A DNA stretch of 64,000 bases from Mobula hypostoma (lineage: Eukaryota), in NCBI RefSeq assembly GCF_963921235.1, contig NC_086097.1:150476001-150540000 (forward strand), read 5' to 3'. The position numbers were made by a program, and so were the translations under genes. The notes below the pieces were generated by a model. That model ran no database searches, was not told where the DNA came from, and was given only the letters and a program-made list of their open reading frames with translations. This document shows positions 13,027-56,334 of this stretch, in pieces. Numbering within the stretch: the stretch's first letter is position 1; each line of letters starts with the position of its first letter.

Positions 13027-13165
13027 CTTGTTGCGCCACACTCTCCTGAGCGAGCACACCAGTCCCAGCATTGACATATTCATCATTGGGGTGTTTCTTG
13101 TGGTAATGTCTCTTCAGTGACCCAGCCATGTTACAGGAGTAGTGGCAGAGAGCACATCGGAAAGG
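13027..13165 (-). CDS. ZFAT: ZFAT coding exon 'C' (native copy): PFRCALCHYSCNMAGSLKRHYHKKHPNDEYVNAGTGVLAQESVAQQ(G)
   Basis: ttcag acceptor, gtatct donor; 139 nt, phase 0/1, in frame with exon B; matches recalled ZFAT PFRCAHCHYSCNISGSLKRHYNRKHPNEEY. Confidence 0.92.
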
Positions 13166-13452
13166 CTGAAGTAAATAAGGAAAACGTTACCAGTAAAATC
13201 TACTCCAGCAGCAAATAGAAGCAACAGTTACACCAGACCACTGAGATCACATAATTATTTGTATCAACAATTGGTAAAATAACAACAGAATTGATATTAG
13301 CAGAACACCAACAGTAAAGGAAGCAGGAAGGACTAGCTCAACAACAGATAACACCTACATGAACAACTGAAACAATTAAACATCTTTTAATAACATGAAA
13401 GGGCGGCAATTTTTGTATCAATGGCAGGGACAGGTACAACACCTGCATTTTC

Positions 13453-15790
13453 AATAGACAATAGACAATAGGTGCAGAAGTAGACCATTCGGCCCTTCGA
13501 GCCTGCACCCCCATTCTGAGATCATGGCTGATCATCTACTATCAATACCCGGTTCCTGCCTTGTCCCCATAACCCCTGATTCCCCTATCCATAAGATACC
13601 TATCTAGCTCCTTCTTGAAAGCATCCAGAGAATGGCCTCCACTGCCTTCTGAGGCAGCGCGTTCCACACCTCCACAACTCTCTGGGAGAAGAAGTTCCTC
13701 CTCAACTCTGTCCTAAATGACCTACCCCTTATTCTTAAACCATGCCCTCTGGTACTGGACTGTCCCAGCATCTGGAACATATTTCCTGCCTCTATCTTGT
13801 CCAATCCCTCAATAATCTTGTATGTCTCAATCAGATCCCCCCTCAATCTCCTTAATTCCAGCATGTACAAGCCCAGTCTCTCTAACCTCTCTGCGTAAGA
13901 CAGTCCGGACATCCCAGGAATTAACCTAGTGAAGCTACGCTGCACCTCCTCCACAGCCAGGATGTCCTTCCTTAACCCTGGAGATCAAAACTGCACACAA
14001 TACTCCAGGTGTGGTCTCACCAGGGCCCTGTACAAATGCAAAAGGATTTCCTTGCTCTTGTACTCCATTCCCTTTGTAATAAAGGCCAACATTCCATTAG
14101 CCTTCTTCACTGCCTGCTGCACTTGCTCATTCACCTTCACAAACTGATGAACAAGTACTCCTAGATCTCTTTGTATTTCTCTCTTACCTAACTCCACACC
14201 ATTCAGATAATCTGCCTTCCTGTTCTTGCTCCCAAAGTATAACCTCACACTTATTCACATTAAACGCCATCTGCCAAGTTTCTGCCCACTCACCCAGCCT
14301 ATCCAAGTCACCTTGAATTCTCCTAACATCCTCATTACATGTCACACTGCCACCCAGCTTTGTATCATCAGCAAACTTGCTGATGTTATTCACAATGCCT
14401 TCCTCTAAATCATTGATGTAAATCGTAAACAGCTGTAGTCCCAATACCGAGCCCTGTGGCACCCCACTAGTCACCACTTGCCATTCCGAGAAACACCCAT
14501 TCACTGCTACCCTTTGCTTTCTATCTGCCAACCAGTTGTCTATCCATGTCAATATCCTCCTCGCAATGCCATGAGCTCTGATTTTACCCACCAATCTCCT
14601 ATGTGGTACCTTATCAAGTGCCTTCTGAAAGTCAAGGTACACCACATCCACTGGATCTCCCGTGTCCATCTTCCTGGTTACATCCTCAAAAAACTCCAAT
14701 AGATTAGTCATGTATGATTTGCCCTTGGTAAATCCATGCTGGCTCGGCCCAATCTTATCACTGCTATCAAGATATGCCGCTATTTCATCTTTAATAATGG
14801 ACTCTAGCATCTTCCCCACTCCTGATGTTAGGCTAACACGGCGATAGTTCTCTGTTTTCTCCCTCCCTCCTTTCTTAAAAAGTGGGATAACATTAGCCAT
14901 TCGCTAATCCTCAGGAACTGATCCTGAATCTAAGGAACAGTGGAAAATGATTACCAATGCATCCACAATTTCCAGAGCCACCTCCTTTAGTACCCTAGGA
15001 TGCAGACCATCTGGACCTGGGGATTTGTTAGCCTTCAGTCCCATTAGTCTACTCATCACTGTTTCCTTCCTAATGTTAATCTGTTTCAGTTCCTCTGTTA
15101 CCCTATGTCCTTGGCCCATCCATACATCTGGGAGATTGCTTGTGTCTTCCCTAGTGAAGACAGATCCAAAGTACTTATTAAATTCGTCTGCCATTTCGCT
15201 GTTTCCCATAACAATTTCTCCCAATTCATTCTTCAAGGGCCCAACATTGTTCTTAACTATCCTCCTTCTCTTTACATACCTAAAAAATCTTTTGCTATCC
15301 TCCTTTATATTCCTAGCTAGCTTGCATTCATACCTCATTTTTTCTCCCCGTATTGCCTTTTTAGTTAAGTGCTGTTGCTCCTTAAAAATTTCCCAATCAT
15401 CCATCTTACCATTCACCTTAGCTCTGTTATACTTCTTTTTTAATGCTATGCTATCTCTGACTTCCTTTGTCAACCACTGTGGCCACTTTCTCCCCTTTGA
15501 ATCCTTCCTTCTCTGGGGGATGAACTGATTTTGCACCTTGTGCATTATTCCCAAGAATACCTGCCATTGCTGTTCCACTGTCCTTTCTGCTAGGATATCC
15601 GACCAGTCAACTTTGGCCAGCTCCTCCCTCATGGCTCCATAGTCTCCTTTGTTCAACTGTAATACTGACACTTCTGATCTGCCTTTATCCCTCTCAACTT
15701 GCAGATAAAAACTTATCATATCATGGTCAGTACCTCCTAATGGCTCCTTTACTTTAAGATCACTTATCAAATCCTATTCATTGCACAAAT
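13453..15790 (-). mobile_element. CR1 LINE, 5'-truncated ORF2 plus 3' tail
   Basis: ORFs 14904-15770, 14184-14900, 13985-14248 and 13604-13954 with KSPGPDGLHP, YLDFQKA.DKVPH, SGVPQGSVLG, KFADDTKL; (CTATTGT)n tail. Confidence 0.92.
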
Positions 15791-16509
15791 CCTGTTCATT
15801 TCAAACTCGACAGAACCAGCACTGGGCTCATAGCAGCAGCTGATCTGTAAGAGGTGGCAGCAACATCTACTGCAACAGTGAAGGCAGTAACTGTTGCAAT
15901 TTCTCGGGGCTGAGGATGACTTGCTTTCACTTTGAGAGACAGTACAGAAGCAGACCCCTCAGCCCATTGAACCTATGCACACTTACACTAACCCTATGTT
16001 AATCCCATTTTTAAATTCTCCTCACATCCATAGAGTCAATTATCCATCACCTTATGAGTACAAGATGCTTGTGCACGACTCCTTTGAAGGTGGAATGATC
16101 ATTCCCATACCAGCCACCATGTGGTCTTGATGGAGAGGGTCCTCGTCAAATGACAAGGAAGTCTAAGGCAACTGCAGACTAAACTCTGCACATGCTCCTT
16201 CTCCACATCATCATTCTCAATGCCCCAATCTTCAGTATGCCAGGCAATTTGCACACACTGAGTTCTTACAAAGAACAATATCATCATCACCTTATAAATA
16301 AATTATACGAGTGAGAGATACATATTGACCATAACAAGGGGAAGAGCATCACTGCTCTTTTTGGAAGAGCCGAAGCATTAGTTTACACTGCTTCATGAGA
16401 GCAAAGAGCTCATGAATTTTCATAGAGCTACCTGCTCTACAATCAATTCACATATAACTGTGTGGCTAAGAAAAACTCCAGTGCTTTCTTCAATTTGCTG
16501 ATGACACTA

Positions 16510-17295
16510 TGTCTCTAGTTCCTGAGGAGATTGACGTCCTTTGGAGTATGCAGGCCTCTCCTTCACATGTTCTACCAGTCTGTTGTTGCCTGTACAATTT
16601 CCTATGCAGTGGTGTGTTGGGGCAATGTCATCAACACGTGTGATGCCAACAGGCTCAATAAGCTGATTAGGAAGGTCGGCTCTGTTACAGGAGTCAGACT
16701 GGACACACTGGAGGCTGTGGTAGAACAAAGGACCCTCCGGAAAATCCTGGCAATTCTGGACAATGTTTCTCACCCTCTGCATGCCACCTTGGCTGAATAG
16801 AGGAGCACTTTTAGTATAGACTAAGACAACTGCACTGCTCCAAAGAGCACTTCATGAGGTCATTCTTACCCTTGGTCACTAAGCTCTATAATGAGTCAAC
16901 CTATAGCAAGGGAAGGGATAACCCCCTCTTGTTAGACGGTTTGAAAAGATCCTGACCCGGATCTGGGCCGTACCCTCCAAATGTCCGGACCTGCCTCTTG
17001 GTTTTTTTCTATATTCTATTTATGATTTATAATTTAAATTTTTAATATTTACTAATTTAACTATTTTTAATAATTAATATTTGTAATCCAGGGAGTGTGA
17101 AGCACAGAACCAAATATCACTGTGACGATTGTATGTTCTAGCACCAATTGTTTGGCGATAATAAACTATAAAGTATAAAGTAACTTATTTTTTACTCTTT
17201 CTTATTTCTCTTCTAATATTTGTATATCTGTGCACTTGTAATGCCGCTGTGACACTGTAATTTCCTTGGGATCAACCAAGTATCTATCTATCTAC
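16510..17295 (+). mobile_element. Rex1/Babar-like 3' fragment with a nested retroposon 3' tail (about 16946-17180)
   Basis: MFYQSVVA..ISYAVVCWG...HPLH; (TATC)n tail; the nested tail ends tttggcgataataaactataaagtataaag. Confidence 0.7.
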
Positions 17296-17544
17296 TGCTT
17301 GAACGAATTACAGATGGTGAAGAGTCAGCTTAACAGAATGAGATAGGACACCTGGTTTAGTGGTGCCACAACAACAGCCTCTCAGTCAATGTCAGCAAGG
17401 TGAAAGAGCTGACTGTTGACTCGAGGAAGGGGAAGGAAGTGAACTTTCACTTCTCTATGTTGGAAGTTCAGCGGTCAAGCGAGTCAGCAGTTTTAAGTTC
17501 TTGTCCTGGGCTCAACACATAAGGAAATCACACCAGTGTCTTAC

Positions 17545-18117
17545 ATAAGAACATAAGAACATTAAGGAATAGGAGCAGGAGTAGGCCATCCGGCCCATCG
17601 AGCTTGCCCCGCCATTCAATAAGATCATGGCTGATCTGTCCGTAAACTCAGCTCCAGCTACCTGTCTTTTCCCCATAACCCTTAATTCCCTTACTATGTA
17701 AAGACCTATCTAACTGTTTCTTAGATATATTTAGTGAAGAAGCCTCAATTGCTTCCCTGGGCAGAGAATTCCACAGATTCATCACTCTCTGGGAAAAACA
17801 GTTTCTCCTCATCTCCATCCTAAATCTTCTCCCCTGAATCTTGAGGCAATGTCCCCTAGTTCTAGTCTCACTTACCAATGGAAACAACTGTCTTACTTCT
17901 ATCTTATCTATCCCTTCCAAAATTTTGTATGTTTCTATAAGATCCCCTTTCACTCTTCTGAACTTCAGAGAGTATAGTCCCAGGCGACTCAATCTCTCCT
18001 CACAGGTTAACCCCTTCATCCTTGGAATCAACCTGGTGAACCTCCTCTGCACTGCCTCCAAAGCCAGTATATCCTTCCTCAGGTGTGGAGACCAGAACTG
18101 CACACAGTACTCCAGGA
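17545..18117 (-). mobile_element. CR1 3' end
   Basis: QFWSPHLRKDILALEAVQRRFTRLIP...RRNCFSQRV; (TTCTTATG)n-type tail. Confidence 0.88.
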
Positions 18118-18984
18118 GTACATTCTTAGGAGGTTAGGAAAGTTTGACTTGTCACTGAACACTCTAACAAACATCTACAGATGTACTGTTTAAAGTATCC
18201 TGATTGGCTTTATCATAGTAATTCAAAGGCGCAGTAATGGAAGAAGCTGCAGAGAGTCGTGGACTTTGCCTCCCCATCTCTGCATTATCTCCAGGAGGCA
18301 CTGCCTCAAGAATACAAAGATCCCCAGCATCTGGGCCAAGCCATCTTTCTGTAGCTGCAACGGGCAGGAGGTGCAGGAACCTGAAGTCCCACATGACCAG
18401 GTTCAAGAACAGCTACTTCCCTTCAACCATTCAGTTTTCGAACCAATTGGCTATACCTCAATCACTATAATTTAGCAACATTGACCATTTTGCACTAAAA
18501 TTGACTTTGTTTTTATTTGTACTTTCATGTATAAATTGTGTAATTTATGTTTTCCTTGTGAATGCTTCTTGTGCTATGTGGCTATGATGCCACTGCATTA
18601 AGATTTTCGTCGAGCCTGAGTGCAACAACTAGCCCCAATGATTCAGTCTCCAAAAGAACGATAGTAGCATCATTTCCAGCAAAATCAAGTGCTCCAGAAA
18701 CCACGATTGACATAGCTGCCTAATGATAATGAAAGGCAAATCATGAAGTAAAACAATGCAACTGCTATAAAAGCAGGACTCAGAGCACTAATATATACCA
18801 AACTGGAACTGATTCTGTAACTGCCTATGGTGATTAAATCAGTATGAATACAATGCAAAAAGGGAAAGTACTTGCTAAAAATATCGAGGATGTCCTGTGA
18901 ACTTCCACATCAAATCTCAAACACGCTGCAACTATTCAATGCTAATGCATAGATTAGGGGAGGGGAAGGAAAAGGACAATTAGG

Positions 18985-19580
18985 CAACACACACAAAATG
19001 TTGGAGGAACTCAGCACATCAGGCAGCAACCACAGAATGGCATAAACAGTCAATGTTTTGGGCTGAACTCTTCATCAGGACTGGAAAGGAAGCCAGATTA
19101 AGAAAATCGGAGGAGGGGAAGGACAATCACCTGCAGGTGATAAGTGAAGTCAATTGAGAAGGAAGGTGGGTGGGTGGGAGAAGAAGAGATGGTGAGCTTG
19201 GAGATAATAGATAGAAAAGGTAAAGGGCTGAAGAAGAAGGTATCTGATAGAAACGGAGAGTGGACCATAGGAGAAAGGCAAGGAGATGGGCACCAGAGGG
19301 AGGTGATGAGCAGGTGAGAAAAGAAGGGATGAGATGTGAACCAGAATGGGGAATGGAAAAAGAAAGAAGGAAGAGGGGGAGAAATTACCAGAAGTTAGAA
19401 AAATCAATGTTCATGCCATCATGTTGGAGGCTACCCAGAAAGAATATGAGGTTTTGCTCCTCCAACCTGAGAGTGGCCTCAACTTGGCCGTAGAGGAGGC
19501 CATGGAACTGGAATGGGAAGTAGAATTAAAATGGGTGGCCGCCAAGAAGTCCTATCTGTTGTGGCAGTTGGAGTTAAGAT
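18985..19580 (-). mobile_element. Penelope-like element 3' end (GIY-YIG C-terminus plus terminal repeat)
   Basis: Minus strand reads LRLEEQNLIFFLGSLQHDGMNIDFS, followed by a pyrimidine-rich tract and the cctgatgaag...ctgagttcctccaacattttgtgtgtgtt repeat. Confidence 0.7.
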
Positions 19581-19613
19581 TCCTAATCCTTATTATAGAT
19601 AATTAATCTTTAC

Positions 19614-19702
19614 CTTAAAGGCAGCATGTTGCTCCATGTGCCGAAGAAGGTTTGGTTTTTGGGCAGCGGTGTAGTCACAAACTGTACACTTAAACTGTTT
19701 AC
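19614..19702 (-). CDS. ZFAT: ZFAT coding exon 'B': (G)KQFKCTVCDYTAAQKPNLLRHMEQHAAFK
   Basis: tgtag acceptor, gtaaag donor; 89 nt, phase 1/0, joins exon A in frame; matches recalled ZFAT GKQFKCTVCDYTAAQKPQLLRHMEQHVSFK. Confidence 0.92.
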
Positions 19703-19856
19703 CTACAAGCAAGAAAACAATGGCGATTGAGATAAGTTACATACTTACTGCTTATTTAACCAATTTGACACTCTGGAACTTGGTTAAAATTGATCAAATT
19801 AACAACAAGGTTAATAAATAATAACAGAATCAAAGAGTCATTGTGGAATGGTAATA

Positions 19857-21381
19857 CAGATTTCCCCCGCCATCTGAAGGTATAGCGTTCCTATGAAATG
19901 GTTCCTAAGCCAAAATGTTGTAAAGCGAAGAAGCAATTACCATTTATTTATATGGGAAAATTTTGTGAGCGTTCGCAAACCCAAAAATAACCTACCAAAT
20001 CATGCCAAATAACACATAGAACCTAAAATAACAGTAACATATAGTAAAAGCAGGAATGATATGATAAATACACAGCCTATATAAAGTAGAAATACTTTTC
20101 CACAATCATTACTGAACTGTTCTCCGTAGCGAAAATCTCACGCAAGCGTTGTTGGCAAAAACACGGCGCAAGCGCTCTCCAGTAACCTTTAAGCTATGAA
20201 GTTGCCAAATCATACCAAATAACACGTAAAAATACATAGCCTATATAAAGTAGAAATAATGTATGTACAGTGTAGTATCACTTACTGGAATCGGGAAGAC
20301 AGCGCCGAGCACACGGATGATGGTGTGTTAGGCTGAGTCGTCGCAGGTTGGGTGGTGCAGTGGCCCCCACCCTCCAGGCTGCCAAGCAATACATTGCCGC
20401 GAAGCACGCAGGGGTCCAGCGGTAGCCGGAAGGCACACAGCACATCTTAAGAAAAAAGCCGAAACAAACATGAGAATTAATTAGGTGCCGCCCGACATGT
20501 AATTGTCGGCCCAGATCAGTGCCGATTGCCAATTGCATCATCTTTGATCTGGGCCGACATTTACATGTCGGTGGCACCTAATTAATTAGCATGTTTATTT
20601 CGGCTTTTTTCTTAAAGATGTGCTGTGTGCCTCCCGGCTACCGTTGCATTCTCCGCGAATTGGTAACTGTCCGTGGCCTGGGGATTGGGGTGGTGGGACA
20701 CTGGGGTGTCATCTCATCGTCTGTTTCCATTAGAGCAGGCAGCTCATCTTCTCCTATGACTGCTCGCCTCGATGTTGAAGGTCGAGGTTCGTCGTCTGCT
20801 GTGGCTGATGTGGAAGGCTTGCTTGACTGCTCAGCCTTGCGCATTTTTCTATCACACAGTTCTTTGTAAGGACTCAAACCATCCTGCAAATATCCCCTAA
20901 ACCGACGTAGCCTTTCAAAATTAAAGTCATACTTTATCATTACTCATTCGGTTTCAATTGTTATCCTTTTTTCTTCCAATTGCATCTGCTCTTCATCTGT
21001 CAGTTCTTGGTGATGCGATGCCAAAACCTCTTCAACATCATGTTAGTCAGCTTCCACAAGCCAAACTCACTTAGTCCTTACTTCGTTCACCACGGTCGAA
21101 ATGCTTAATTATGTCCAGTTTTATGCTAAGTGTAACACCCTTACGAGCTCTTTCAGGCTTTTCCAATACCATAGAACTCATCTTGCAAACGGCTGCTTAC
21201 AGGCACGTGTTTAAGCTATGCTATTCCGAATCCAGGGCAGAGCGGCTGCCTTTTATCGCGCGCTGATTTTTTTTTCGTAACAGTGAAAACACCCTCTGAA
21301 AGCAAAAACAGGGTACTAATGTAGGTCTTTTGTAACAGTGAGGTTTCGTAAAGTGAACGTTCGAAAAGCGGGGGACACCTG
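19857..21381 (-). mobile_element. pogo/Tigger-like non-autonomous DNA transposon
   Basis: TA flanks; imperfect 25-bp TIRs (cagatttcccccgcc.. / ..gcgggggacacctg); transposase C-terminal remnants DVEEVLASHHQELTDEE and DFNFERLRRF...YKEL. Confidence 0.8.
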
Positions 21382-21409
21382 TAGTATATCTTAACTGACA
21401 ATCAATACA

Positions 21410-22160
21410 GGTTGCATGCTTAGCCCACTACTCTCTCTACACTCATGATTGTGTGACAAAGCTCAGATCAAATATCATCTATAAATTTGCCAGTGACGTT
21501 ACTGTTGTTGATAGAATATCAGATGACCATGGGGAGACATATGGAGTGGGTTAGTCAGGCTGGTTGAGTGTTATCGCAACAATACCCTCATATCTTGGCA
21601 AACCTCTATAGATGAGTGGTGGAAAGTGTGCTGACTGGCTGCATCACAGCCTGGAAAGGCAGCACCAATGCCTTTGAGCAGAAAATCCTGCAAAGGTAGT
21701 GGATTCAGAAAACCCTCCCAACCATTGAGCACATCTACATGAAACGTTGCTGTAGAAAAGCAGCATCCATCATCAAAGATCCTCACCACCAGCTCTTTTC
21801 TTGCAGCTGCCATCAGGTAGAAGGCACAAGTGCCTCAGGACTTGCACCAGCAGGTTCAAGACAGTCACTACCTCTCAACCATCAGGCTCTTGAATAAAAG
21901 GGAATAGCTACACTCATTCTACTTCTGGTGTTTCCACAACCGATGGTTTCACTTTAAGGACTCTTTATCTTGTTATTTCATGCTTACTATTTAATGCTCT
22001 TTATTTATGCATTTAATGCATTTGCACACTTTGTTGTCCATTGATCCTGTTTACAGTTACTGTTCTATAGATTTGCTAAGTATTCCCGCAGAAAAAGAAT
22101 CTTAGGGTTGTATGTGGTGACGTGTATGCACTCTGATAATAAATTTTATTTTGAACTTTG
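21410..22160 (+). mobile_element. Decayed Rex1/Babar-like LINE fragment
   Basis: Similar to 60-990 and 56690-58945; tail ctgataataaattttattttgaactttga. Confidence 0.65.
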
Positions 22161-23255
22161 ATACTCAATCTCAGCAAGAATTGAGTATCAAAGAATTGAT
22201 TATGGACTTCAGGAAGGGGAAACTGGGAGAACGCACACCAGATCTCACCGAGGGGTCAACAGTGCTAAGAGTGAGTACCTACCTTCATTCCTTTGTCACA
22301 TCTCGGAGGATCAGTCCTAGGGTCAACACATTGATATAATCACAAATTAGGCACAGCACTTTACTCTATTAGGAGTTTGATGAGATACAGCACGTCATAT
22401 GAGACGTGTAACAGTATGGCACATCGGATGTGTAATGGTATGTCACATCGGACGTGTAATAGAGACTAACAGTATTGTGAACAAAGGAAAAAGCAGAGAA
22501 TTTGTGGAAGGTGGAAGACTGAGGTCAAACTTTTAAATTGTTTACAACTTAACTTAGAAATCAAAGATAAGTAGTTGCTTGAGCTGGAAACCTAATGCTA
22601 CCCAAAAGACACAACCTACTTGTGATAAGGGTAAAGACAATTGGAAAGAAAGCTGAAACACAACCACAGAACCTTGGACAATAGACAATAGACAATACAC
22701 AACAGGTGCAGAAGTAGGCCATTCGGCCCTTCGAGAGCAGTAGGTCACCCAAAGTGGAAGATGGGAAGTATAAAAATGATATTTTGAAAGGATTCAATTT
22801 ATTGGAAGCATCCAACATCTTTTGTCAACAGGTTTGCCACTGTCTTTCTGGTATCAAGATGTGTTTGGCATCTATTTGGTATCAAGATCCTATTACGGTG
22901 AAGCATTACAGTTTCTTTGGGCTCCCAGGAAAAGACCAAGTGTTTCCTGGATCTGTAGCCATGACTTATGAACTTCTGTTAAAACTAGCAGGCCCCTTTT
23001 TTCCTATCCATTATGAACTCAATTGTTGACCTATTCATGATCGCCCAGTTGCTCAACTTAAAATATACAAAATGATATATAGAGTCTTAGTCAAAACCAG
23101 TAATTATGTCAACATTGGCATCAAACAAATTACAAAAGCTTTTCAGAACAACATTTAGAAAGTCCATGCAAAGAGTAAAATAAAATATCAAAAAACTGCA
23201 TATGTTAGAAGCTTGAAATGAAAAAGGAGGCTGGAGACACTCAGCAAGCCAGGCA

Positions 23256-23522
23256 AGAAATGAGTATGGTGGTAGCCTTGGATGCAGAAAAAGCATTTGA
23301 TAGATTGGAATGGGATTTTTTATTTAAAGTATTAGAAAAATATGGGTTAGGTGTACATTTTATAAACTGGATTAAAACTTTAAACACTAATCCTAACGCT
23401 AAAGTAGTGACAAATAGTCAAATTTCAGCACCATTCCAGTTAAAAAGGTCAACTAGACAAGGTTGCCCATTATCACCTGCTTTATTCGTATTGGCGATAG
23501 AACCATTAGCAGAACTAATTAG
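23256..23522 (+). mobile_element. 5' stub of a 5'-truncated L1 (RT region), cut by the duplication junction
   Basis: VVALDAEKAFDRLEWDFLF...RQGCPLSPALFVLAIEPLAELIR; preceded by TSD half agcaagccaggca. Confidence 0.9.
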
Positions 23523-28604: not shown

Positions 28605-29607
28605 CGGTTGACAAGAGATGTAGAACATGTAGTCAAGAGGAAGAAAAAAATATACTTAAGGTTTAAAATATTAATTTCCAGATAGCAATTTCTCCCAGTT
28701 CTTTGTTCTGTTTCCTCCCTCAATCAACAATGTCAAGAACATTTATTTCATTGTTGCTGAAGGCAAGTTGTATTTACAGTCCAAAAGTAATTCACTTTCT
28801 TGGAACTCTTTTTTAGTGTGTCTTATAAGTTTAAAGAACACAGTATCGATTCTTCGGCCCACAATGCTGTGCCAACCTTTTAACCTACTCCAAGATCAAG
28901 GTAACCCCTCTCTCACTCCCACATAGCACTCCATTTCTCTGTTATTCATGTACCTATCCAAGAATCTCTTAAGTGTCCCAACCACCAGCCATGGCAGTGT
29001 GTTCCATGAACTTAGCACTCTTTGTGTTTTAAAAAAAACTCCCTCAAACATAGCCCCATTCACCTTAAAATTATCCCCTTTCATATTAACACAACACACA
29101 CAAAATGCTGGAGGAACTCAGCAGGCCTGGCAGCATCTATAGAAAAGAGTACAGTTGACGTTTCAGGCTAAGACCCTTCAACAGGACTCTTTCATATTAG
29201 CCAGTTCTACCATGGGAAAAGGTGCTGGATCTCCACTCTACCTAGGCCTCTTATCATCTGATACATGTGACAGAAATAAACCAAGTTGCCAATTTTCATG
29301 TTTTTTCAACTTACTAATCATACCTGTCACCCTCAATGCATATAATAAACAGCAATACTGTTCCTGGTTCTGAACGTTCCCACGATGTTTCTGATGATTG
29401 TTCATTAGCCTGAAATAGCAACATTTCCTCTTTATTTTGCACACTTTCAGAATGTTTTAGTCTGAAATTTTAAAATTTTTCATTTGGCTTCACCCCTATC
29501 TCTGTATTTTGTGTAATTTTACAGTTTTACTGTTGAATATGTTACCTTTCCACATATCAGCAGCTTTAACTCTGAGAAGTTTGCATTCCAGTTAGAGAAA
29601 GCTGACT

Positions 29608-36525: not shown

Positions 36526-36589
36526 GTACTTACTTAACTCTCCTCTGAAGATGCTACATCTTACGAAGTTCTGGCTCTTGTGCTTGATT

Positions 36590-42070: not shown

Positions 42071-42460
42071 CATCAATACCATCCTGTAGCTTAAGGATTG
42101 TCAACATTTCCCACCAATCCTAATATCATCACTGGACCCAGTCCTCATAAAGCAAACAGCTGGAAATTGGTACTACAAGTGATGAAGCTCAACCCAGTGG
42201 AAAGCAGAAAGGAGAGATAGTATTGTTAAACATAATGAAGGTCCTACAACTGGCCTCATTATGAGGATCACTGATGAAGAAAAAATGATAAAAGATTTTC
42301 TCCACTCCTGTCCTTAGACTGCATGATGCTAACATTGAGTGAGAAAACTTGAAAAAATTTAATGTTCATTCACTAGTAATCACACTTTTTTAATTGAATC
42401 AATGAGAACTATTTATGTTGAGGGAAGTGATTTTGGACATGTTTGTTATTTTTTGTACAG

Positions 42461-42590
42461 CAGGTTCTCGAAGCTCCTGCAGAGCAGACTCAAACACAGT
42501 ACTTTCACATAGCAGAGAGTGAAGAGGATGTGCAAGGTGCCCAAGCAGCTGTGGCAGCTCTTCAAGACTTGCGGTACAATACAGAGAATG
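42461..42590 (+). pseudogene. ZFAT: ZFAT exon 'E' in the inverted duplicate: QVLEAPAEQTQTQYFHIAESEEDVQGAQAAVAALQDLRYNTEN(G)
   Basis: tacag/cag tandem acceptor, gtgagt donor; phase 0/1; matches recalled ZFAT TQYLHITEAEEDVQGTQAAVAALQDLRYTSESG. Confidence 0.82.
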
Positions 42591-44719: not shown

Positions 44720-45990
44720 TAGACAAATGGCAGCTGATCCAAGTTGCTTCTTAGTTGATAGGTTTCATCACCAACTTCTCAAAATATTTCATTGCTGCAG
44801 ATGTAAGTGCTACAGGCTGATGGTCATTGAGGCAGGTCACCATGTTCTTCTTAGGCACTGGTATAATTGAAGCCTGCTAGAAGGAGATAGATACCTCAGA
44901 CTGCTGAAGAGGGAGTTTAAATACCTCAGTGAATACTCCAGCCAGTTCTTTAGTACTGGAGTGTAGCACAGGTCTTTAGTACTCGGCCGGTACCCCATCT
45001 GGGCTGGATGCTTTCTATGGATTCACTCACCTCGGCCTAAGAGACTGAAATCACAGGATCATCAGAGGCTGTGGGATTTCGTGATGGTTCTTCCATGTCT
45101 TGTCAGTTGAAGTGAACATACAAGACATTCAGCTCACCTGGATGTGAAGTTCCGTTGCCACCTAAGATGCACGAGAGCATTTAAGCATTGCCTCTGTTGT
45201 TGAGCATCCTTCATTGAGTCAAGTTTACTTCAGAATTGCCACTTCACTTTTGAGATGGCTTTCTGGAGATCGTACCTGGACCTCTTGTAACTTTCTTGGT
45301 TGCTAGACCTGAATGCCTCTGATCTGGCCCTTGGAAGATTGCGGAGCTCATGTCCATCCAGGGCTTCTGGTTGGAAAAGACTCTAGATAATTTTAGGGGC
45401 CACATGCATCTACTACTGTTTTTATACAGTTTGTGACAAACATAGTGTATTCATTCAGATCCACAGATAAGTCCTTGAACACAGCCCAATCCACCAACTC
45501 AGCAATCCCATAGCCTCCCGTGATCCCATAGCCACTTCTTTGTCGTTGTAGTCTCTACAACCTTGTTGTTTAGCCTCTGTCTGTATGTAGGTAGGAGGAG
45601 GACTGCCAAGTGATCTGACTTCCCAAAATGTGATCTGGGCATGGAACTGTAGACATTCCTTACCCTGCTATAACAGTGGTCTGCTGTGTTGAGAGCCTCT
45701 GCTGCTACAGGTTATATGCTGATTCTAACTGGGCAGGGATTTCTTCAAACAAGCCTGATTGAAATTCCCAACTATGATATAAAATGAGTAAAGGTGAACT
45801 GTTTCTTCTTTGGCAACAGCATCATGCAATATCTCAAGCACTTGATTATAGTTGGCAGCTGGTGGTATGTAAACTGTGGACAGGATTACAGAGGAGAACC
45901 CTCTTGGTAAATAGAGCAGTCAGCACTTGATCGTTAGGTGTTATAGGTTGGGGGAATACGAGTACCAAACCACCACATCAGACATTTCAA
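44720..45990 (-). mobile_element. Decayed Rex1/Babar-like LINE endonuclease region
   Basis: Minus strand has cattttgggaagtcagatcacttggcagtcctcctcctacc and cagaagccctggatg, as at 56800-57080. Confidence 0.6.
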
Positions 45991-46444: not shown

Positions 46445-48368
46445 CAGATAGATAGTTTATTGATCCCAAAAGAAATTCATGTCAATGGAGCATTACAAGT
46501 GCGCAGATACACAAATATTAGAAGAGAAGAAAGAAAAAAATAAAAATTAGTTAGCTCAAACAGTCTATCAGGAAGGGGTCATCACTTCCCTGGCTACAGG
46601 TTGACTCATTATAGAGCCTAATGGCCGAGGGTAAGAATTACCTCATATAGTGCTCTTTGGAGCAGCACAGTTGTCTTAGTCTACGTCCACACTATGCCCG
46701 ATAATTTTGAAAACAAAGCTTTTTCTCTTCGTTTTGACCCTCCGTCCACACTAAAATGGCATTTTCATCCCCTGAAAACAGAGAATTTCAGAAACAGTCT
46801 CCAGAGTGAATAAATCTGAAAACTCCTAATATCCGTTACAGTGTGGACGGGGTAACCGGAGATTTTTAAAACCGCTGTCATGACGTGCCGGAACAGATGG
46901 CGGCAGTGCGGCATTTCATTGTTTTCTTCTTATGATTATTATTACTTTATTGTCGCCAAACAATTGATACTAGACCATACAATCATCACAGCAATATTTG
47001 ATTCCGTGCTTCGCAGAACCTAACAATTTCAGAACAGACAGCAACAAGACTGAAGCCAGAAGAGTTAGAAATATACTCACCAAATACTTTGACCCATAGC
47101 TTACTGAATAAATAAGTATACTCACTTTGCCTCGTTTTCTGTCCTTGGTTGTATGAAGGTGGTTTACCTATTTATGCAAGTACTTCTCTGACAATAGATG
47201 TGTAACAGCCTAATGTAACATTGTATGGAAATACAAGATAACACTGATGCAGACATGTTTTATACATTTAACAAGGTGCTTTATTAATGCAACAGAGTTA
47301 GTCAGTTTTTCAATGTTCATCGTCAGCCGGGTCATACTGTCCGTGAACTCCCTGTCGGTTGCCTCCATACACCCCAGTATTTTTTTTTCAAATTTAAGTC
47401 CTCCTGCACGAGAGCCAATAGCAATTCCTTTTAAGTTTTTCTACTCTGTAACTGGACAAACGCGTGCCAAGTATACCGTTTCCTCTTCGCTTGTTTTCTG
47501 TGTGTCCTGCGCATGCCCAGTAAGAGGAGATTCGCCCAAATATCTGTTCTAATGTGGACAGAGATATTCTGAAAAACGCTTAGTGTGGATGCCTGTCGTT
47601 TTTACTCGAAATCGGCATTTTCAAAATTATCCGGGATAGTGTGGACGTAGCCTCTGTCTATTACTAAAAGTGCTCCTCTGTTCAGCCAAGGTGGCATGCA
47701 GAGGGTGAGAAACATTGCCCAGAATTGCCAGGATTTTCCAAAGGGTCCTTTGTTCTACCACAGCCTCCAGTGTGTCCAGTTTGACTCCTATAACAGAGCC
47801 AGCCTTTCTAATCAGTTTTTTGAGCCTGTTGGCATCACACGTGTTGATACCATTGCCCCAGTATACTACCTCAAAGAAGATGTACAGACTAGTAGAACAT
47901 GTGAAGGAGGGGCCTGCATACTCCAAAGGGCCTCCATCTCCTCAGGAAGTAGGGGCAACTCTAGCCCTTCTTGTACACAACCTATGTGTTGGTGCTCCAC
48001 TCAAATCTGTCATCCAGGTGCACCTCCAGGTAGTTATAGGTCTTCACCACATCCATACCATCAATGGAGGCTTAGTCTTCCTGGAGTCCATCACCATCTC
48101 CTTTGTCTTACTGATGTTGAGCTGCAGATGATTCAGCTTGCACCATTTGACAAAGTCCTCTACCAGAGCCCTGTATTCATCCTCCCTTTACACACCCAGC
48201 TATTGCTGAGTCATCAGAGAATTTCTGTAGATGACATCACTCAGTGTTGTATCTAAAGTCTGAGATATACAGGGTCAACTGCAAGGGACCACACAGCTCT
48301 GACGCTGTACAAACGGTAGTCTGCCAGTCAGGCAGTCTGTTATCCAGGTTACAATGAAAGTGCCAACC
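46445..48368 (-). mobile_element. Rex1/Babar-like LINE interrupted by a MITE and truncated by L1
   Basis: Same family as 16510-17295 (DANRLKKLIRKAGSVIGVKLDTLE...HPLH); WITDCLTGR. Confidence 0.78.
46679..47652. mobile_element. PIF/Harbinger-like MITE
   Basis: About 33-bp TIRs ctacgtccacactatgcccgataattttgaaaa / ttttcaaaattatccgggatagtgtggacgtag; internal ccacact/agtgtgg subrepeats; TSD not clean. Confidence 0.72.
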
Positions 48369-51300
48369 GGGGTGACGTACTGTGATGACGTGGGATGGAG
48401 ACGTATGAATCCAGCTCTCCCGTAAAAAATCAGCAAAGTACCGTTTAAACAAAGCAAAGTTAATAAATACTTTCCGAAAACTACTTATAAACTTCTCAAG
48501 ACTATTTTACGATATGCCTCATAAACCGCAACAGAAGAAGACTGCTGTTGTGAAGTCGCCACGAGACAGGAAGAAAAAATGGCCTACTGCAGCGATGGAA
48601 CCTTGGACTCAGGTTGGATCTTCTTCAAAAGACACACATTTTATCTCTGGCATAGAAGAACAGGGAGCAATGGCGGCGGTAGCGGTCCCTGAGAAGAAGA
48701 TGCCGGAATTGCGCATGTACAAAGAAGTAGGCATGTGCAAATCGATACAACTCAAACTACAAGAACTGACGGCCACTGCAAGCGAAAATGACTCAGAGTC
48801 AGAATTGGATTCCGCAGAGAACACAGATGATGAAGAAGAGGAAGAAGAACTGGAAGAGACTAAAAGTAAAGGATATGATGGAGACATAAAAGAGGTTTTA
48901 TTGCAAGTAATGATTGAATTAAAAGGATTAAAAATAGAGATTAGAAACATGAAGCTGAGCTATGATAAAGCTATGAAAAGACAGGAGAAAATGGATAAGA
49001 AACTTCAAAAGTTGGAAAGAACAATGGAGCATATTAATGACAGAGTGGAAAAAACAGAAAATGATGTGCTTGTCTGGAAAACGGAAAGAAATTGACTGTT
49101 GGAAAAAGTGGACGTGCTGGAAAATTTTAGTAGATAAAATAATATTAAGATTGTTGGTCTTAAAGAAGGTATAGAGGGAGACAATCCAATAGAATTTTTT
49201 CTAAGATGGATCCCGGAAACTTTGCAAATGAAAGGGGGAGACCAATCAATTGAAATTGAACGGGCACATAGAGCTCTTAAGACCAAAACCTCAAGATGAC
49301 CAATATCCACGATCAATTTTAATAAAATGTTTAAGATTTCAAGACAAAGAAAGGATTCTATAGGCAGCTGCTCAAGCTGCCAAGAATAGAAAAGGAGCAT
49401 TGATGATAGAAGAGAACAAATTTTTTTTCTACGCTGACATAAGTTACAAAATTTGAAGAGAAGGAAGAAATTTAATCCAGTGAAAGAGGTCCTATGGGAT
49501 CACGGCTATCAATTTATACTGCGCTACCCTGCAACCTTGAAGATTTTTTGGCTGGCGGAGAAAAAGGATTTTTTGACGATTACCAGAAAGCAGAGGAGTT
49601 TGTGCAAGATTCTTTGAAGATACAAGAACAAAACCAGGGGAGCGAGATGGATTAAAGATGAAGATTTGGTCGAGGAATAGACTTGGTGGATTTTTAAAGG
49701 TGAAAGAATATATAAATATATTATTAATTATATGATAGCGGGGAAGAAAGGTTAAAGTCTGAAGAATATTAGTTGCGAATAGTGACCTTAATTTTTCTAT
49801 ATATATACAATTTTTTTTGTTCCGGGGGAGCTGGAAGAAATACTGACCAATCGCTACAGAATTCATGTGTGCAAGCATGGCTATAGCCACGACCCGCAAA
49901 ATGGAGTGGGGTAGTATTGTCCTTTTTTTCATTCACAACATTAGTAGGGGGGTATTTTGTTATTTTTCCTTTTGTATCATATCTATCTTTTGTTTCTTTC
50001 CTTTTGCCTGGATGATTGGGAGGGAAACACATAGCAACATGGTGAAGTTTAAAGAGATTCCCCAAGGAACTATGAGAGTTAAGATGTTAAGTAATGTTTT
50101 TTCCAAATTATGAACCCTCATGAATATTTATGCACCAAATGAAAATGATGCAAAATTTATACAAGAAGCTTTTTTGAATTTGGCTGATGCACATGAAAAA
50201 ATATTAATAGGAGGAGATTTTAATTTTTGCCTAGACCCAGTCTTAGATAGATCAACGAAGGCTGTTACAAAATCGGAGGTAGTAAAACTAACTTTATCAT
50301 TGATGAAAGATTTAAATTTGATTGTTATATGGAGAAGAAACAATCCCAAAGAAAGAGACTATTCGTTCTACTCTAATAGACACAAAACTTACTCAAGGAT
50401 AGATTTTTTCCTATTATCAATCAATATTCAACACAGAGTGAAAAATATGGAATATAAAGCAAAAATATTGTCAGATCACTCTCCTTTATTAATGACAATA
50501 ATAATGACTGATAAGGAAGAAGTGACTTATAGATGGAGATTTAATTCAATATTATTAAAACGTCAAGATTTTTGTGATTTTGTGAAAAATCAGATCCAAT
50601 TTTTTTTGGATACAAACTCATTCAGTGGATGATAAATTTATACTATGGGATGTGATGAATGCATATTTGAGGGGTCAGATAATAAGTTATACGTATAAAA
50701 TTAAGAAAGAATATATGGCAGAACTAGATCAATTGGAATAAGAGATTACAAAATTAGAAAAAGAATCTCAAAGACATGCGACAGAAGGAAAACGAAGACA
50801 ACTTGTCAGTAGGAAGTTACAATATAATATGCTTCAGACATATAGAACGGAAAAAGCAATCATGAGAACTAAGCAAAGGTATTATGAGTTAGGTGAGAGA
50901 GCACACAAAATTCTTGCTTGGCAGTTGAAAACAGAGCAGGCTTCCAAAACGATAAATGCAATTAGAACAAGAGCAAATAAAATTACTTCTAAACCTTTAG
51001 GAATTAATGAAACCTTCAAAAGTTTCTATTCTTTATTATAGCAATCGGAATTACAAAATGATGTTAATGAGATAGAAAGGTTTTTATCACAAATAACTCT
51101 TCCAAAATTGAATTCGGAGGAACAGAAGGGATTAGATATGCCCTTTACATTAAAAGAGATTGAAGAAGCTTTAGGATCACTTCAAAGTAATAAATCTCCA
51201 GGACAGGATGGTTTCCCACCTGAATTTTATAAAAAGTTTGAAGATTTATTATTTCCTCCTTTTATGAAGTTAATACGTCAAGCGGAAAAAATACATAAAC

Positions 51301-53825
51301 TCCCAGAATCTTTCTCAACAGCGATTGTAATAGTATTGCCAAAAAAAGGATAGAGATCCTTTAAAAACCAGCATCATATAGGCCTATTTCTTTGTTGAAC
51401 ACGGATTATAAAATAATAGCAAACATTTTATTGAATAGATTATCTAAATATTTACCAAAATTAATACATATGGATCAAACAGGATTTATTAAAAATAGAC
51501 AATTGGCAGATAATGTAACTCGGCTACTCAGTATAATTCATTTGGCACGAAAAAGGGAGGAGATGAGTATAGTAGTAGCCTTGGATGCAGAAAAAGCATT
51601 TGATAGATTGGAATTGGATTTTTTATTAAAAGTATTAGAAAAATATGGGTTAGGAACACCTTTTATAAACTGGATTAAAACTTTAAATACTAACCCTAAT
51701 GGTAAAGTAGTGACAAATAGTCAAATTTCAACACCATCCCCATTAAAAAGGTCAACTGGACAAGGTTGTCCATTATCACCCGCTTTATTTGTACTGGCGA
51801 TAGAGCCATTAGCAGAACTAATTAGAATTGATTCCGATATTAAGGGTTTTAGAGTTATTCAGGAGGAATATAAAATTAATCTATTTGCTGATGATGTTTT
51901 GATTTACTTAACAAACCCACAGCATTCGTTATGTAAATTATCTTCTAGGTTGGATGAATATGGGAAAGTATCAGGGTATAAGATAAATTGGGATAAAAGT
52001 GAAATTTTACCTCTTACTAAAGGAGACTATAGCCAATGTCGATTAGCAACCCAATTTAGATGGCCGGTAAATGGTATAAAGTATTTAGGTATAAGACTTG
52101 ATAATGATGTAAAGAATTTATATAAATTTAATTATTTACCACTATTGAAAAAAATTCAAGGAGAGCTTGACAAATGGATGATACTACCAATAACATTAGT
52201 GGGTAGAGTCAATGTTGTAAAAATGAATATATTTCCTAGATTACAGTATTTGTTTCAAACATTACCAATATAATTGCCACAGAAATTTTTTCAAGAGTTA
52301 AATAAATGTGTGAGAAAATTTCTTTGGAAAGGTAAGATGCCAAGAATATCATTGGAAAAATTGACATGGAAATTTGAATTGGGAGGGTTACAACTTCCAA
52401 ACTTTAAGAATTATTATAAAGCAAATCAACTTTGATTTATTGCATCTTTCTTTGACGAACAAAAAGTGGCAATGGATTAGAATAGAATTAGATAAGATAG
52501 GAGAAAATACACCCGAAGATTTTATACATAAATGGGAATCTAAATGGATACGGGATAGAAAGAATCTCCTATATTAAACATTTGATTGATCTATGGAATA
52601 AGATAGATGTTGATAATGAAATAAAGAAATCTTTATTAGCAAGGAGACCTTTGATTCAAAACAGACTTATTCCTTTTACAATGGATAATCAACGTTTATA
52701 TAATTGGTATCAAAAAGAGATTAGATGTATAGGAGACTGTTATGAAGGAGGTATATTGATGTCATTTGAACAATTAAAGAATAATTATAAAATATCAAAT
52801 AACACTTTCTTTTGTTACCTTCAATTAAGGGCTTATTTAAGAGACAAACTGGGTCAAACAATGTTTTTGCCGAAACCTAATGAAATTGAAATTTTAATTC
52901 AAAAAGGAAAAATTTAAAAAATTATTTCTTTTATGTATAATCTGATTCAAAAACAGACACTTAAACAAGGAATTCACAAGACCAGACAAAAATGGGAAAC
53001 GGATTTGGGTATTAATATTGATGAAACAAATTGGTCAAGATTATGTCTTGACAGTATGACAAATACAATAAATGTTCGACTTAGATTAGTACAACATAAT
53101 TTTTTACACCAATTATATATTACACCGCAAAAAATAAATAGATTAAATTCAAACTTATCTGATCAATGTTTTCAGTGTAATCAAGAAATTGGCACTTTTT
53201 TACATTCTACTTGGTCCTGTTCCAAAATTCAACCTTTTTGGATAAATTTAAGAGTTTTATTGGAACAAATTACTGGAACTCAACTTCCACATAACCCTAT
53301 ATTATTTCTATTAGGTGATATTGAAGGGATAAAACCGAAACCTAAATTGAATAAATACCAGAAAGAATTTATAAGAATTGCATTGGCAGTAGCCAAGAAG
53401 GCTATAGCAGTTACGTGGAAATCTGATTTGTATTTAAGTATGGATCGTTGGAATAATGAAATTCTTAGCTGTATTCCACTTGAAAAAATTACTTATAATT
53501 TAAGAGATAAATATGATACATTTTTGAATATTTGGCACCCTTATTTACAAAAGATAGGTTGGCATATTTAGGTACTCTGATGATAAAGATGTTGGTCCTT
53601 TGGGGAAAGTAAAAAATAAATATATTAAATTTATTTGAATCCTGTGGAGCATGTGGAGACCTTCCAATATCCAGGAAATCTTTCTTTCTTTCTTTTTTTT
53701 TCTTTTTCTTTCTTTTAGGTAGGGGTATATATCGGGGGGAGGGGTTAAGAAGAGGGGGGAGGGTAGATATTGTTATTCCATGTAATCAAGCGTGAAAACT
53801 TAATAAAAATTATATATAAAAAAAA
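48369..53825 (+). mobile_element. Near full-length but mutated L1-clade LINE (5'UTR, ORF1 from 48514, ORF2 pieces 50120-53571, poly(A)); apparently chimeric
   Basis: ORF1 coiled coil plus LENFSR.NNIKIVGLKEG and IEIERAHR; ORF2 NIYAPN, LDAEKAFD, FADD, CxxC..H..C; the 5' and 3' flanks do not share a TSD. Confidence 0.92.
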
Positions 53826-54536
53826 GCAAGCCGGGCAGCATTTGTGGAAAGAGAAATAATTAAATGGGCCCTGAAGAAGGGTTTGGCGTGAAATGATGAC
53901 TGTTTATTCTTTTCCATAGATTCTGTCTGACCAACTGAATTCCTCCAGTGTTTTGTGTGTGTTGTTTTGGATTTCCAGCATCTGCTGATTTTCTTGTGTT
54001 TGCAATTAAATTTGTACTTTTTTGATCCTTGCTGAGTGTTTCCAGTATCATCTGGTTTAATCCGTACACACACCACAAAGCCTTATCCTTGTTTCCTGAT
54101 GCAGTTTCTATAGTTTCAGTAAAGGTAAAGAAAGGCAGTTCAAAACCTGTTCTGACTGAAGATAGTCCTTGTAGTTACACTCTGGGGATCTGTTCCCCAC
54201 TCCTACTACTTCCCTGTATTATTTCTTATTCAGAGTCAAGTCACTTCTGTATCATGTTTGCCTGGACTTGGGTTGCATGCAGACTCTCAGTTCACTGGAT
54301 TTATTTCAATGCTATGAACATTCAGGGTCATGGTCTTCAATTCTGTAACCTTTAGGCTTATCTACTGATGCACTCGTAAATTTGCACAGCCCATCCCTTC
54401 CTATCACGTTTTGTTGATCATTTCTGTATTAATAGCTTTGTCTCTATCCTTTGCCCCCATGAGTTAACCTCCATCCATAAATGATCTTCATGTGAACTAT
54501 AGGCCCTGCCAAACTCTCATTTCTCCAAAAAAAAAG

Positions 54537-54982: not shown

Positions 54983-55530
54983 TAGTCAGAGTAATACAAC
55001 ACAGTAACAGGCCCTTTGGCCCATTGTCCATCCCAACCGAGTTGCCCATCCAGGCTAGTCCCATCTACCTTAAACCTCTCCTGTCCCAGTACCTGTCCAA
55101 ATGTCTTTTAAATGTTGTTACTGTACCCTCCTCAACCACTTCCTCTGACAACATGTTTGATATAAGCACCGTCTGCATGAGTTCCTTTTATATCTTTCTC
55201 CTCCCATCTTAAACCCGTGTCCTCTAGTTTTTAACCTCTTCTGGAATACTGTACAAGTTCAAAGTTCAAAGTAAATGTATTACCAAAGTACATATATGTC
55301 ACCATATACAACCCTCAGATTTATTTTCTTGCAGGCATTCACAGTAAATCCATAACAGAATGATGACCATCATAAAATCAACATAAGACCACACCAAATG
55401 GGTGTTCAACCAGTGTGCAAATACAAAAAGAAAGAAGTAATAATAAAAAAAATATATAAACAATAAATATCAAGAACATTAGATGAAGAACCCTTGAAAG
55501 TGAGTCCATAGGTCATGGGAACATTTCAGT

Positions 55531-55692
55531 AACACTCAAAACATGCTGGAGGAACTCAGCAGTCGGGCAGCATCGGTGGAAACGATGAGTCGACGTTTCG
55601 GGTCGGAACCCTTCGTCAGGTCGCCCGACCTGCTGAGTTCCTCCGGCGTGTTGTGAGTGTTGCTTTGATCCCAGCATCTGCAGATTATTTTG
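55531..55692. mobile_element. Short palindromic Penelope-type insertion with 15-bp TSD
   Basis: Inverted arms aacactc..gaggaactcagcag / ctgctgagttcctc..gagtgtt; direct repeat tgggaacat(t/g)tcagt at 55516-55530 and 55693-55707. Confidence 0.7.
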
Positions 55693-56160
55693 TGGGAACA
55701 TGTCAGTGATGGGGCAAGTGAAATTGAGTGAAGTTATTCCTTCTGGTTCAAGAGCCTGATGGGTGAGGGATAATAACTGTTCCTGAAGCTGGTGCTAGCC
55801 ACGATATTAATGAATGATGGAAAAGCAAAATGGGGTCTGATAGCCCTTTCCTACTCATTTTTCTTCCATTCTTACACTTAATGCATGTGGAAGGAATTGG
55901 TATTTTTCGGCTGCCCCTTTGTTGTCAACTTTAGGTAAGTTTTTACTTAAAGAAGATATTTATTCCTGCGTTTACAGGAGACTGCAGGTGCTGAAATCTG
56001 GAGCAAAAAATAAATTGCTGCAGGAGCTCAGCAGGCCGGGCAGCATCTGTAGACGATAGTTGAATTTTCAGGTCGAGAATCTGCATCTGAGCACAATACT
56101 CCTGCCTTTATTGCTGTAAGTTATCAGAAATAATCGGTTGCACTGGATGGCATTACTCAC

Positions 56161-56334
56161 CATCAGCAGTATGCAACAGTTTATGACTCTTCAGGCTGCC
56201 TTTTGATTTGAATTTCTTTCCACACAGATCACAGAGGTGGGTTTTCTCGGTGCTGTGACGGTTCATGTGGGCTCTCAAGTTGCTCTTACTGCGTGTGGCA
56301 TAGTCACAAATGGAACACTTGAAGGGCTTCAGTC
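56161..56334 (-). CDS. ZFAT: ZFAT coding exon 'A' (two C2H2 fingers): (G)LKPFKCSICDYATRSKSNLRAHMNRHSTEKTHLCDLCGKKFKSKGSLKSHKLLHTAD(G)
   Basis: Manual minus-strand translation; ctccag acceptor and gtgagt donor; 174 nt, phase 1/1; near-identical to the recalled vertebrate ZFAT segment KPFKCSLCEYATRSKSNLKAHMNRHSTEKTHLCDMCGKKFKSKGTLKSHKLLHTADG. The exon letters are my own labels. Confidence 0.92.

Follow-up and report, generated by a model that had tools for sequence, protein, structure and literature searches.

How did the zinc-finger gene ZFAT of the ray Mobula hypostoma come to carry an inverted copy of its own downstream exons inside one of its introns, and how does the gene fare with it? The locus lies within a 64,000-nucleotide stretch of contig NC_086097.1 (positions 150,476,001 to 150,540,000 of the forward strand, RefSeq assembly GCF_963921235.1) – hereafter the window, in whose numbering all positions are given. 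We consider it highly likely that this is a real intragenic inverted duplication produced by a single repair event.

The window contains three native ZFAT exons, all on the minus strand: exon A (56334-56161, 174 nt), which encodes two zinc fingers, the single-copy exon B (19702-19614, 89 nt), and exon C (13165-13027, 139 nt). A first-pass annotation of the sequence had described these exons as ordered and in phase and, consistent with that description, we found that their ends carry AG and GT and that they join into one open zinc-finger frame. Joined together, exons A to G correspond to the last 341 residues of a ZFAT-like protein of M. hypostoma; C, D, and E are the fifth-, fourth-, and third-last coding exons. 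The top match of a large upstream exon, at 100% identity, is an M. hypostoma protein named ZFAT-like, and its remaining top matches are ZFAT proteins of sharks and rays. Among the protein matches listed, 119 of 120 are labelled ZFAT-type or are unnamed or hypothetical, and no other gene name appears. Judged by these whole-query matches and by the continuous exon order, the gene is the ZFAT orthologue. A PDB sequence search returned the single-finger ZFAT structures 2elq and 2elr among its matches; CTCF, which ranked first in that search, was set aside because the ranking sums many fingers, and the identity of the gene rests on the protein matches. The ZFAT proteins of M. hypostoma and M. birostris have 1194 of 1197 residues in common.

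To define the duplicated segment, we compared the window with itself and then with 100 kb to its left and 60 kb to its right in the assembly (224 kb in total). We observed a 29.4-kb arm on the plus strand (23519-52941) that is templated on, and inverted relative to, a native arm. The copied arm contains second versions of exon C (24545-24683, plus strand, 139 nt), exon D (36404-36525, plus strand, 122 nt), and exon E (42461-42590, plus strand, 130 nt), located between A and B as the first-pass annotation had reported. That annotation also predicted native exons D and E on the minus strand at about 7.8 and 13.9 kb before position 1, which is where we found them. Each copied exon is identical to its native counterpart over the exon and 100 bases on either side, and full-length exons C and D each occur exactly twice in the assembly. 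A zinc-finger-like match within the copied arm, at 44793-44858, was ruled out as an exon.

The native arm is divided into two pieces. Its inner 1.5 kb (12656-14191, minus strand) comprises exon C and the 3' part of a CR1 element, and its remainder begins at 1-3554 (minus strand) and runs on for 24.3 kb leftward through exons D and E and most of an L1 element, L1a. An earlier statement that 23519-28604 mirrors the start of the window at near-identity was right about the similarity but not about the continuity: 25051-28604 mirrors 1-3554 (1 mismatch in 3554 bases), 23519-25054 mirrors 12656-14191 (6 mismatches in 1536 bases), and a 9.1-kb long terminal repeat (LTR) element separates the two native pieces. 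A longer mirror pairs 25051-53830 (28.8 kb) with sequence reaching 25.2 kb left of the window. Overall, the two arms differ by 26 single-nucleotide variants (SNVs) over 29.4 kb, and their 99.9% identity across 29 kb is, on sequence comparison, far above chance. A 9.3-kb single-copy spacer that includes exon B (14192-23518) lies between the arms. The copy ends 1.3 kb before exon F, and its insertion expanded intron A-B from about 8.2 kb to 36.5 kb. A segment of at least 28 kb, from the CR1 upstream of exon C to an L1 downstream of exon E, had been proposed to be inserted inverted into this intron; both the extent and the ends agree with what we found. Three features go beyond that first description: the insertion splits an older L1 with its own target-site duplication, the LTR element is confined to the native arm, and the differences between the arms are clustered.

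The outer end of the copied arm falls within a hybrid L1 (48369-53825, plus strand). Its 5' end and 5' target-site copy (48358-48368) are those of L1a, while its 3' end and 3' target-site copy belong to another element, L1b, that is about 90-91% like L1a. Matches to an endonuclease and a reverse transcriptase, found for a neighbouring L1 that is 91% alike, mark the stretch as L1. The change from one element to the other is sharp, at 52941/52942: 88 of the 113 differences in the 28.8-kb alignment fall within the L1b 3' end (52942-53825, plus strand; about 890 bases compared with native L1a), and the adjoining 2,972 bases (49970-52941, plus strand) are identical to native L1a. The outer junction, at which L1b gives way to L1a, is the right end of this identical stretch.

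The rest of L1b is found at the other end of the copied arm. Here, a 267-base piece from the 5' part of the 5'-truncated L1b (23256-23522, plus strand; 91% identical to L1a 51560-51825) follows the 5' copy of the L1b target-site duplication (23244-23255, plus strand). The 3' copy (53826-53837, plus strand) follows the poly(A) tail, matches the 5' copy at 11 of 12 bases, and now lies 30.6 kb from it. The 5' copy is embedded in a short interspersed repeat whose other half follows 53837; combined, the flanks of L1b make one such repeat, which resembles another at about 56,020. Because the target-site copies match and the flanks form a single repeat, one truncated L1 – L1b – must once have stood here and is now split. 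A contig from a related organism (organism B, described below) spans the spacer into L1b, and L1b is therefore older than the split. We also asked whether the two outlying pieces behave as parts of one element in 18 other L1 copies, 13 of which could be scored at both the 5' and 3' pieces: in 12 of these 13 related copies, both pieces favour L1a or both favour L1b (Fisher p 0.014). Two points weigh against reading much into this check, as the rank correlation is not significant (rho 0.34, p 0.26) and the paralogs share ancestry.

At the inner junction, L1b meets the CR1 (native 14191-14188) at a 4-bp microhomology, TTAG (23519-23522, plus strand). The expectation of one junction at inverted repeats and one at microhomology is thus upheld at both ends. 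In L1a coordinates, the L1b piece stops at 51825 and the switch lies at 52941; about 1,116 bases (about 1.1 kb) of the middle of L1b have been replaced, the missing part being inferred from L1a. Both junctions accordingly lie within about 1.1 kb of one L1b – a nearness that one break explains and two separate events do not.

These observations show that the ancestral intron A-B contained a single 5'-truncated L1b of about 2.3 kb within a short repeat, and that an opposite-facing, near full-length L1a was located between exons E and F. They also suggest a simple course of events. Following a break or stalled fork within L1b, the L1b end nearer exon A may have invaded L1a, about 91% alike, from which 29.4 kb – L1a, exons E, D, and C, and their introns – would have been copied in the opposite direction before the new strand rejoined the other L1b end through the 4-base microhomology. 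We regard this one-event origin with considerable confidence. Microhomology-mediated break-induced replication or fork stalling and template switching (MMBIR/FoSTeS), the label first given to the rearrangement, fits the pair of junctions but is more specific than they allow: one-ended gene conversion over a long tract, closed by microhomology joining, would leave the same product as replicative template switching and cannot be distinguished from it. Long-tract conversion has itself been called break-induced-replication-like (PMC4888836).

In principle, the same hybrid L1 could have formed in two steps, with L1a-L1b recombination inverting exons B to E and a later microhomology join between the inverted and a normal chromosome rebuilding the gene. 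A copy drawn from the other haplotype would also explain the clustered differences and the LTR element missing from one arm. However, the inversion allele would be null for a gene whose loss is lethal to mouse embryos (PMC8248092), and it would take a coincidence for the second join to land in the very L1 that held the first crossover, no more than 1.1 kb away. We therefore consider a two-step history very unlikely.

The mechanism proposed for the ray ZFAT duplication is already known, its junction pair being that of a human MANBA allele (PMC6549551). There, a multi-exon segment of 13.1 kb is reversed within its own gene, with a proposed switch between opposite-facing repeats, a 3-base microhomology return, and a small gap at the site. 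ZFAT likewise has reversed exons in its own gene, chimeric opposite-facing repeats, and a microhomology return with a small gap. The two differ in the repeats involved (Alu-Alu in MANBA, L1-L1 in ZFAT) and in size (13.1 versus 29.4 kb). Moreover, the MANBA copy lies within the duplicated span, whereas the ZFAT copy is placed one exon upstream, in a wild cartilaginous fish; and MANBA homozygotes lack wild-type transcript, whereas a normal-looking ZFAT transcript exists in the ray species.

Other human alleles share parts of this pattern. An inverted duplication of CHM exon 12 (PMC8756506) is also an intragenic inverted exon copy with microhomology junctions and a predicted pre-mRNA hairpin, but it spans 1.75 kb and one exon, has microhomology at both junctions, encloses a 274-nt loop, and leads to skipping; the ZFAT loop is 9.3 kb and one of its junctions lies in an L1. 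In the PLP1 patient BAB8920, a duplication-normal-inverted duplication (DUP-NML-INV/DUP) carries a chimeric LINE from a switch between opposite-oriented LINEs that are 93% alike, and a second switch at microhomology (PMC6902434). The same combination of opposite-oriented repeats and microhomology occurs at ZFAT, in cis in the assembly. Nevertheless, BAB8920 has two duplicated segments megabases apart, and ZFAT is not a DUP-NML-INV/DUP: a single segment was gained next to a neutral spacer, with a small loss of about 1.1 kb.

We next considered whether the structure is real. We judge that it very probably is, and the case comes mainly from its anatomy, which an assembler could hardly invent. The 224,000 bases examined contain zero N, and the copies are not divided by a gap. 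We also compared contigs of four sequencing runs with window positions 12500-24000; these include DNA of organism A (X1), the related organism B (X5), and a run that the tool guesses to be RNA (X9). In X1, the one arm contig listed has a depth of 29.5 against 10.8-19.9 (mean 16.2) for seven spacer contigs, which is 1.8-fold and 3.9 standard deviations above them. In X5, the arm contig is at 1.2-fold relative to six spacer contigs, a CR1 repeat contig (depth 165.8) having been left out; organism B, which differs from the assembly at 51 of 3,530 bases (1.44%), looks single-copy on one contig.

Several points count against a real duplication. The depth support comes from a single arm contig, contig depth is not copy number, and X1 is possibly the source sample of the assembly. 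Normalisation also shrinks the excess: the X1/X5 ratio at the arm is 0.56, inside the 0.22-0.57 spread of five matched spacer places and 1.35-fold their median. Finally, none of the contigs and joints listed crosses 23519-23522, although repeats swamped those tables and the result is no evidence either way. An assembly artefact, in which a second haplotype or chimeric read was joined backwards into a false duplication, would account for the shrinking excess and the lack of a listed junction-crossing read. It would also account for the allele-like arm differences and the insertion in one arm only, as between haplotypes, and if noisy long reads were polished with short reads, the distinction between nearly identical arms could become blurred. 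Yet such an error is hard to reconcile with the gapless 224 kb and the raw 1.8-fold depth, and it would need to produce a hybrid L1 switching at matching positions, matching target-site copies, and a 1.1-kb loss in the same L1. We thus give an artefact little credence. As a separate observation, position 17302 is G in the only X1 contig there and in organism B but A in the assembly, and may reflect heterozygosity, a different individual, or an error in the assembly.

Some features of the arms do not fit a simple one-time copy and weigh against it: the two clusters of differences described below and the LTR element present in one arm. The LTR element (3555-12655, plus strand, 9.1 kb) is a tandem structure of three 861-bp LTRs and two 3,259-bp internal parts with a 4-bp target duplication, visible in the self-comparison as a 4,120-base tandem unit between 3553 and 12655. 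The copied arm has the empty site, with one 4-bp target copy (25051-25054, plus strand). The element encodes a 1011-codon open reading frame with SCAN and zinc-knuckle matches and no reverse-transcriptase match; it may be a Gmr1-like Gypsy derivative. Its LTRs differ at five sites, three common to other copies and two private, and its two internal parts differ at three sites, giving five private or internal differences in 9,101 lineage-bases. Dating the insertion by the five LTR differences was set aside as weak, since three of them occur in other copies. LTR1 and LTR2 are identical; their five-site pattern also occurs in 4 of 27 other copies, and LTR3 follows the commoner pattern at three sites. 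These patterns suggest that two subfamilies recombined to form the element. About 61.7-60.8 kb left of position 1 lies an older solo LTR with about 80% similarity to those at 3555-12655.

The remaining differences between the arms are concentrated in two islands. Island 1 spans 835 bases (49135-49969, plus strand) within the 5' half of L1a as copied and contains 12 SNVs and 1 indel. Island 2, which belongs to the CR1 of the copied arm (23528-24174, plus strand), contains 6 SNVs over about 650 bases. Outside the islands, we counted 8 SNVs in 27,932 bases (0.029%). Twelve of the 26 SNVs fall in one kilobase, a concentration matched by none of 20,000 random placements. Divergence within the islands (1.4% and 0.9%) compares with the 1.44% distance to organism B, and both islands lie less than 4 kb from an arm end. 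Set against 28 L1 and 28 CR1 paralogs, island 1 shows 8 SNVs at which the copy carries the derived base and 4 at which the native arm does; for island 2 the numbers are 4 and 1, with 1 unclear.

We rejected the idea that a different L1 or CR1 copy had converted the islands. With 40 of 769 and 40 of 3,614 candidates scored, none of the 28 L1 and 28 CR1 copies fitted either arm (best 94% and 97%). Within island 1, moreover, 18 private bases common to both arms are interspersed among the 13 differences, and there was therefore no paralog donor. The clustered differences and one-arm LTR element then point either to conversion between the arms after the duplication or to copying from the homologous chromosome.

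Under the first of these possibilities, which we rate at just under an even chance, the duplication is older than the 99.9% identity implies, its palindrome-like arms have been largely homogenised by conversion at kilobase scale, the islands escaped conversion, and the LTR element was inserted into the native arm after the duplication. Consistent with this, the SNVs are clustered, the islands approach the distance to organism B and lie near the arm ends, derived bases occur in both arms, and no paralog donor fits. The five private or internal differences of the LTR element also exceed the arm background (p 0.026), while its flanks differ at 1 site in about 5 kb. Multi-kilobase conversion tracts have been described for a human Y palindrome (PMC3723533). 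Against conversion, the island limits were drawn post hoc, which inflates their density, and the outermost 2,972 bases are identical. Dating by the LTR element is soft, because three of its five LTR differences are common to other copies and reverse-transcription errors count too. In addition, organism B is apparently single-copy, and the 1.35-fold normalised depth fits a heterozygote, which is less likely for an old allele.

Conversion would extend the likeness between ZFAT and sex-chromosome palindromes (PMC8327919, PMC3723533), which have arms above 8 kb that are more than 99% alike, a short spacer, and possible conversion. Large palindromes have been defined by arms longer than 8 kb, more than 99% alike, and less than 500 kb apart (PMC8327919), and the ZFAT arms, 29.4 kb with 26 SNVs around a 9.3-kb spacer, have these properties. 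ZFAT also differs from them: its arms hold three internal exons of one gene rather than whole genes, conversion is only suggested, and the origin can be read at both junctions.

The second possibility, to which we give somewhat less than even weight, is a young duplication templated on the homologous chromosome, or one in which an ordinary crossover later exchanged the native arm; on this view, the islands and the presence or absence of the LTR element would simply be differences between alleles. A single step would account for both islands and for the absence of the LTR element from the copy. The 0.029% background is similar to the divergence of X1 from the assembly (0 differences in eight listed pieces, 1 site elsewhere, at 17302), organism B is apparently without the copy, and the depth is compatible with heterozygosity. 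The LTR family is also young and numerous, with all 40 of 40 scored matches at 98-100%. This account, however, requires two allelic blocks at 30-50 times background, both near arm ends by chance, and the flanks of the LTR element should be at least as old as the insertion, yet differ at 1 site in about 5 kb (p 0.02 for the central estimate, 0.4 for the low one).

We considered a third source of the islands, replication errors from the repair synthesis itself. Error-prone synthesis near such junctions occurs in human work, and here both islands lie near junctions, with the copy carrying the derived base at 12-13 of their 18 SNVs. On the other hand, the native arm carries the derived base at 5 of these SNVs, island 1 lacks a single strand-coordinated pattern, and the first 2,972 copied bases are error-free. 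We regard synthesis errors as an improbable explanation.

One further feature of the arms concerns another L1. At 29566-33516, an L1 with an inverted 5' part joins a minus-strand piece (29577-31166) to a plus-strand piece (31314-33516) with a 38-base overlap (29607-29644 / 31314-31351). This form, expected from twin priming, is present in both arms.

We then examined what the duplication may mean for ZFAT RNA. The native reading frame is intact, and the copied exons lie antisense and leave it untouched. In the pre-mRNA, the order would be the near-perfect antisense copy of exons C to E, then exon B, then native C to E; the first base complementary to the copy comes 5,423 bases past the exon B donor, and the LTR element breaks the stem after 1.5 kb. 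Splicing of intron A-B at exon B may be complete before transcription has advanced the 5.4 kb needed to produce any base able to pair; given the upstream position of the copy and this lag, we expect splicing to win in most cases. With this head start, and with the stem interrupted by the LTR element, the inverted copy probably does limited harm to ZFAT RNA.

Consistent with a normal-looking ZFAT message in the species, one contig from X9 (2010 nt, depth 51) fits normal splicing of C-D-E-F-G: exon C occupies contig positions 347-487, and the 1,525 bases that follow match the summed length of D, E, and F and a further 1,145-1,148 bases from the last exon, which places the contig end 15-18 bases past an AATAAA. 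Both M. hypostoma protein models listed keep exons A to F (six exons). Skipping of B, C, C to E, or D would cause a frameshift, and joins of A to D, A to F, B to E, and C to F would be in frame. Among 30 cartilaginous-fish proteins, two, both of them from sharks, omit exons B and C without a frameshift (76 residues), so that an A-to-D join is annotated there; this check relied on gene models and covered the 15 of 39 cluster members listed.

Mostly normal splicing from the duplicated allele itself seems to us slightly favoured. The X9 contig fits normal splicing downstream of C but does not show it for this allele, as X9 is another sample that may be without the duplication and a heterozygote's message may come from the other allele. 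Moreover, exon B was inferred in, rather than listed for, that contig, contigs drop minor forms, and the human MANBA (PMC6549551) and CHM (PMC8756506) inverted alleles cause exon skipping. Exon E also carries a tandem acceptor, with two AGs 3 bases apart (copy at 42458-42463); the M. hypostoma model follows the longer form, and a Narcine protein apparently the shorter one.

A more far-reaching idea, which we hold as doubtful, is that the locus is a fixed autosomal palindrome in an essential gene, with arms held alike by conversion and up to 29 kb of potential double strand in the pre-mRNA, and that a race between splicing and transcription lets the gene escape or tunes it. If so, part of the output would go to the in-frame A-to-D or A-to-F forms, the LTR element would weaken the hairpin, and a crossover joining one arm to the other would invert exon B and inactivate the allele.

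We found no earlier account of a ZFAT duplication in rays in the literature on inverted ZFAT duplications and on Mobula hypostoma genomes. ZFAT is absent from the main text of a mobulid genome preprint (10.64898/2026.10.27.761883), in the portion of it available, and its supplements may list the duplication; a horse preprint (10.1101/545111) mentions duplications within ZFAT without detail in its available part. The ray locus is a rare natural example in which every clue survives – both L1b target-site copies, the exact switch point in the hybrid L1, and the return junction – and it indicates that, in a cartilaginous fish, an inverted gain of 29 kb can arise from L1 copies that are 91% alike. 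If it is homozygous and normally spliced, it offers a natural test of the arm distance and order at which co-transcriptional splicing beats a hairpin, and would bear on how intragenic inverted duplications in patients are judged. Should the allele instead prove rare and heterozygous, it would count as an ordinary structural variant.

Other repeat pairs lie in the region. Two CR1 copies in the same orientation, 95.3% alike over 2.25 kb, lie about 110 kb apart (about 97.2-95.0 kb left of position 1, and 13451-15694) and are a possible substrate for deletion of the ZFAT 3' end. In another ZFAT intron, at about 100.4-102.8 kb in window numbering, a 1.08-kb inverted pair is 97% alike and separated by about 250 bases.

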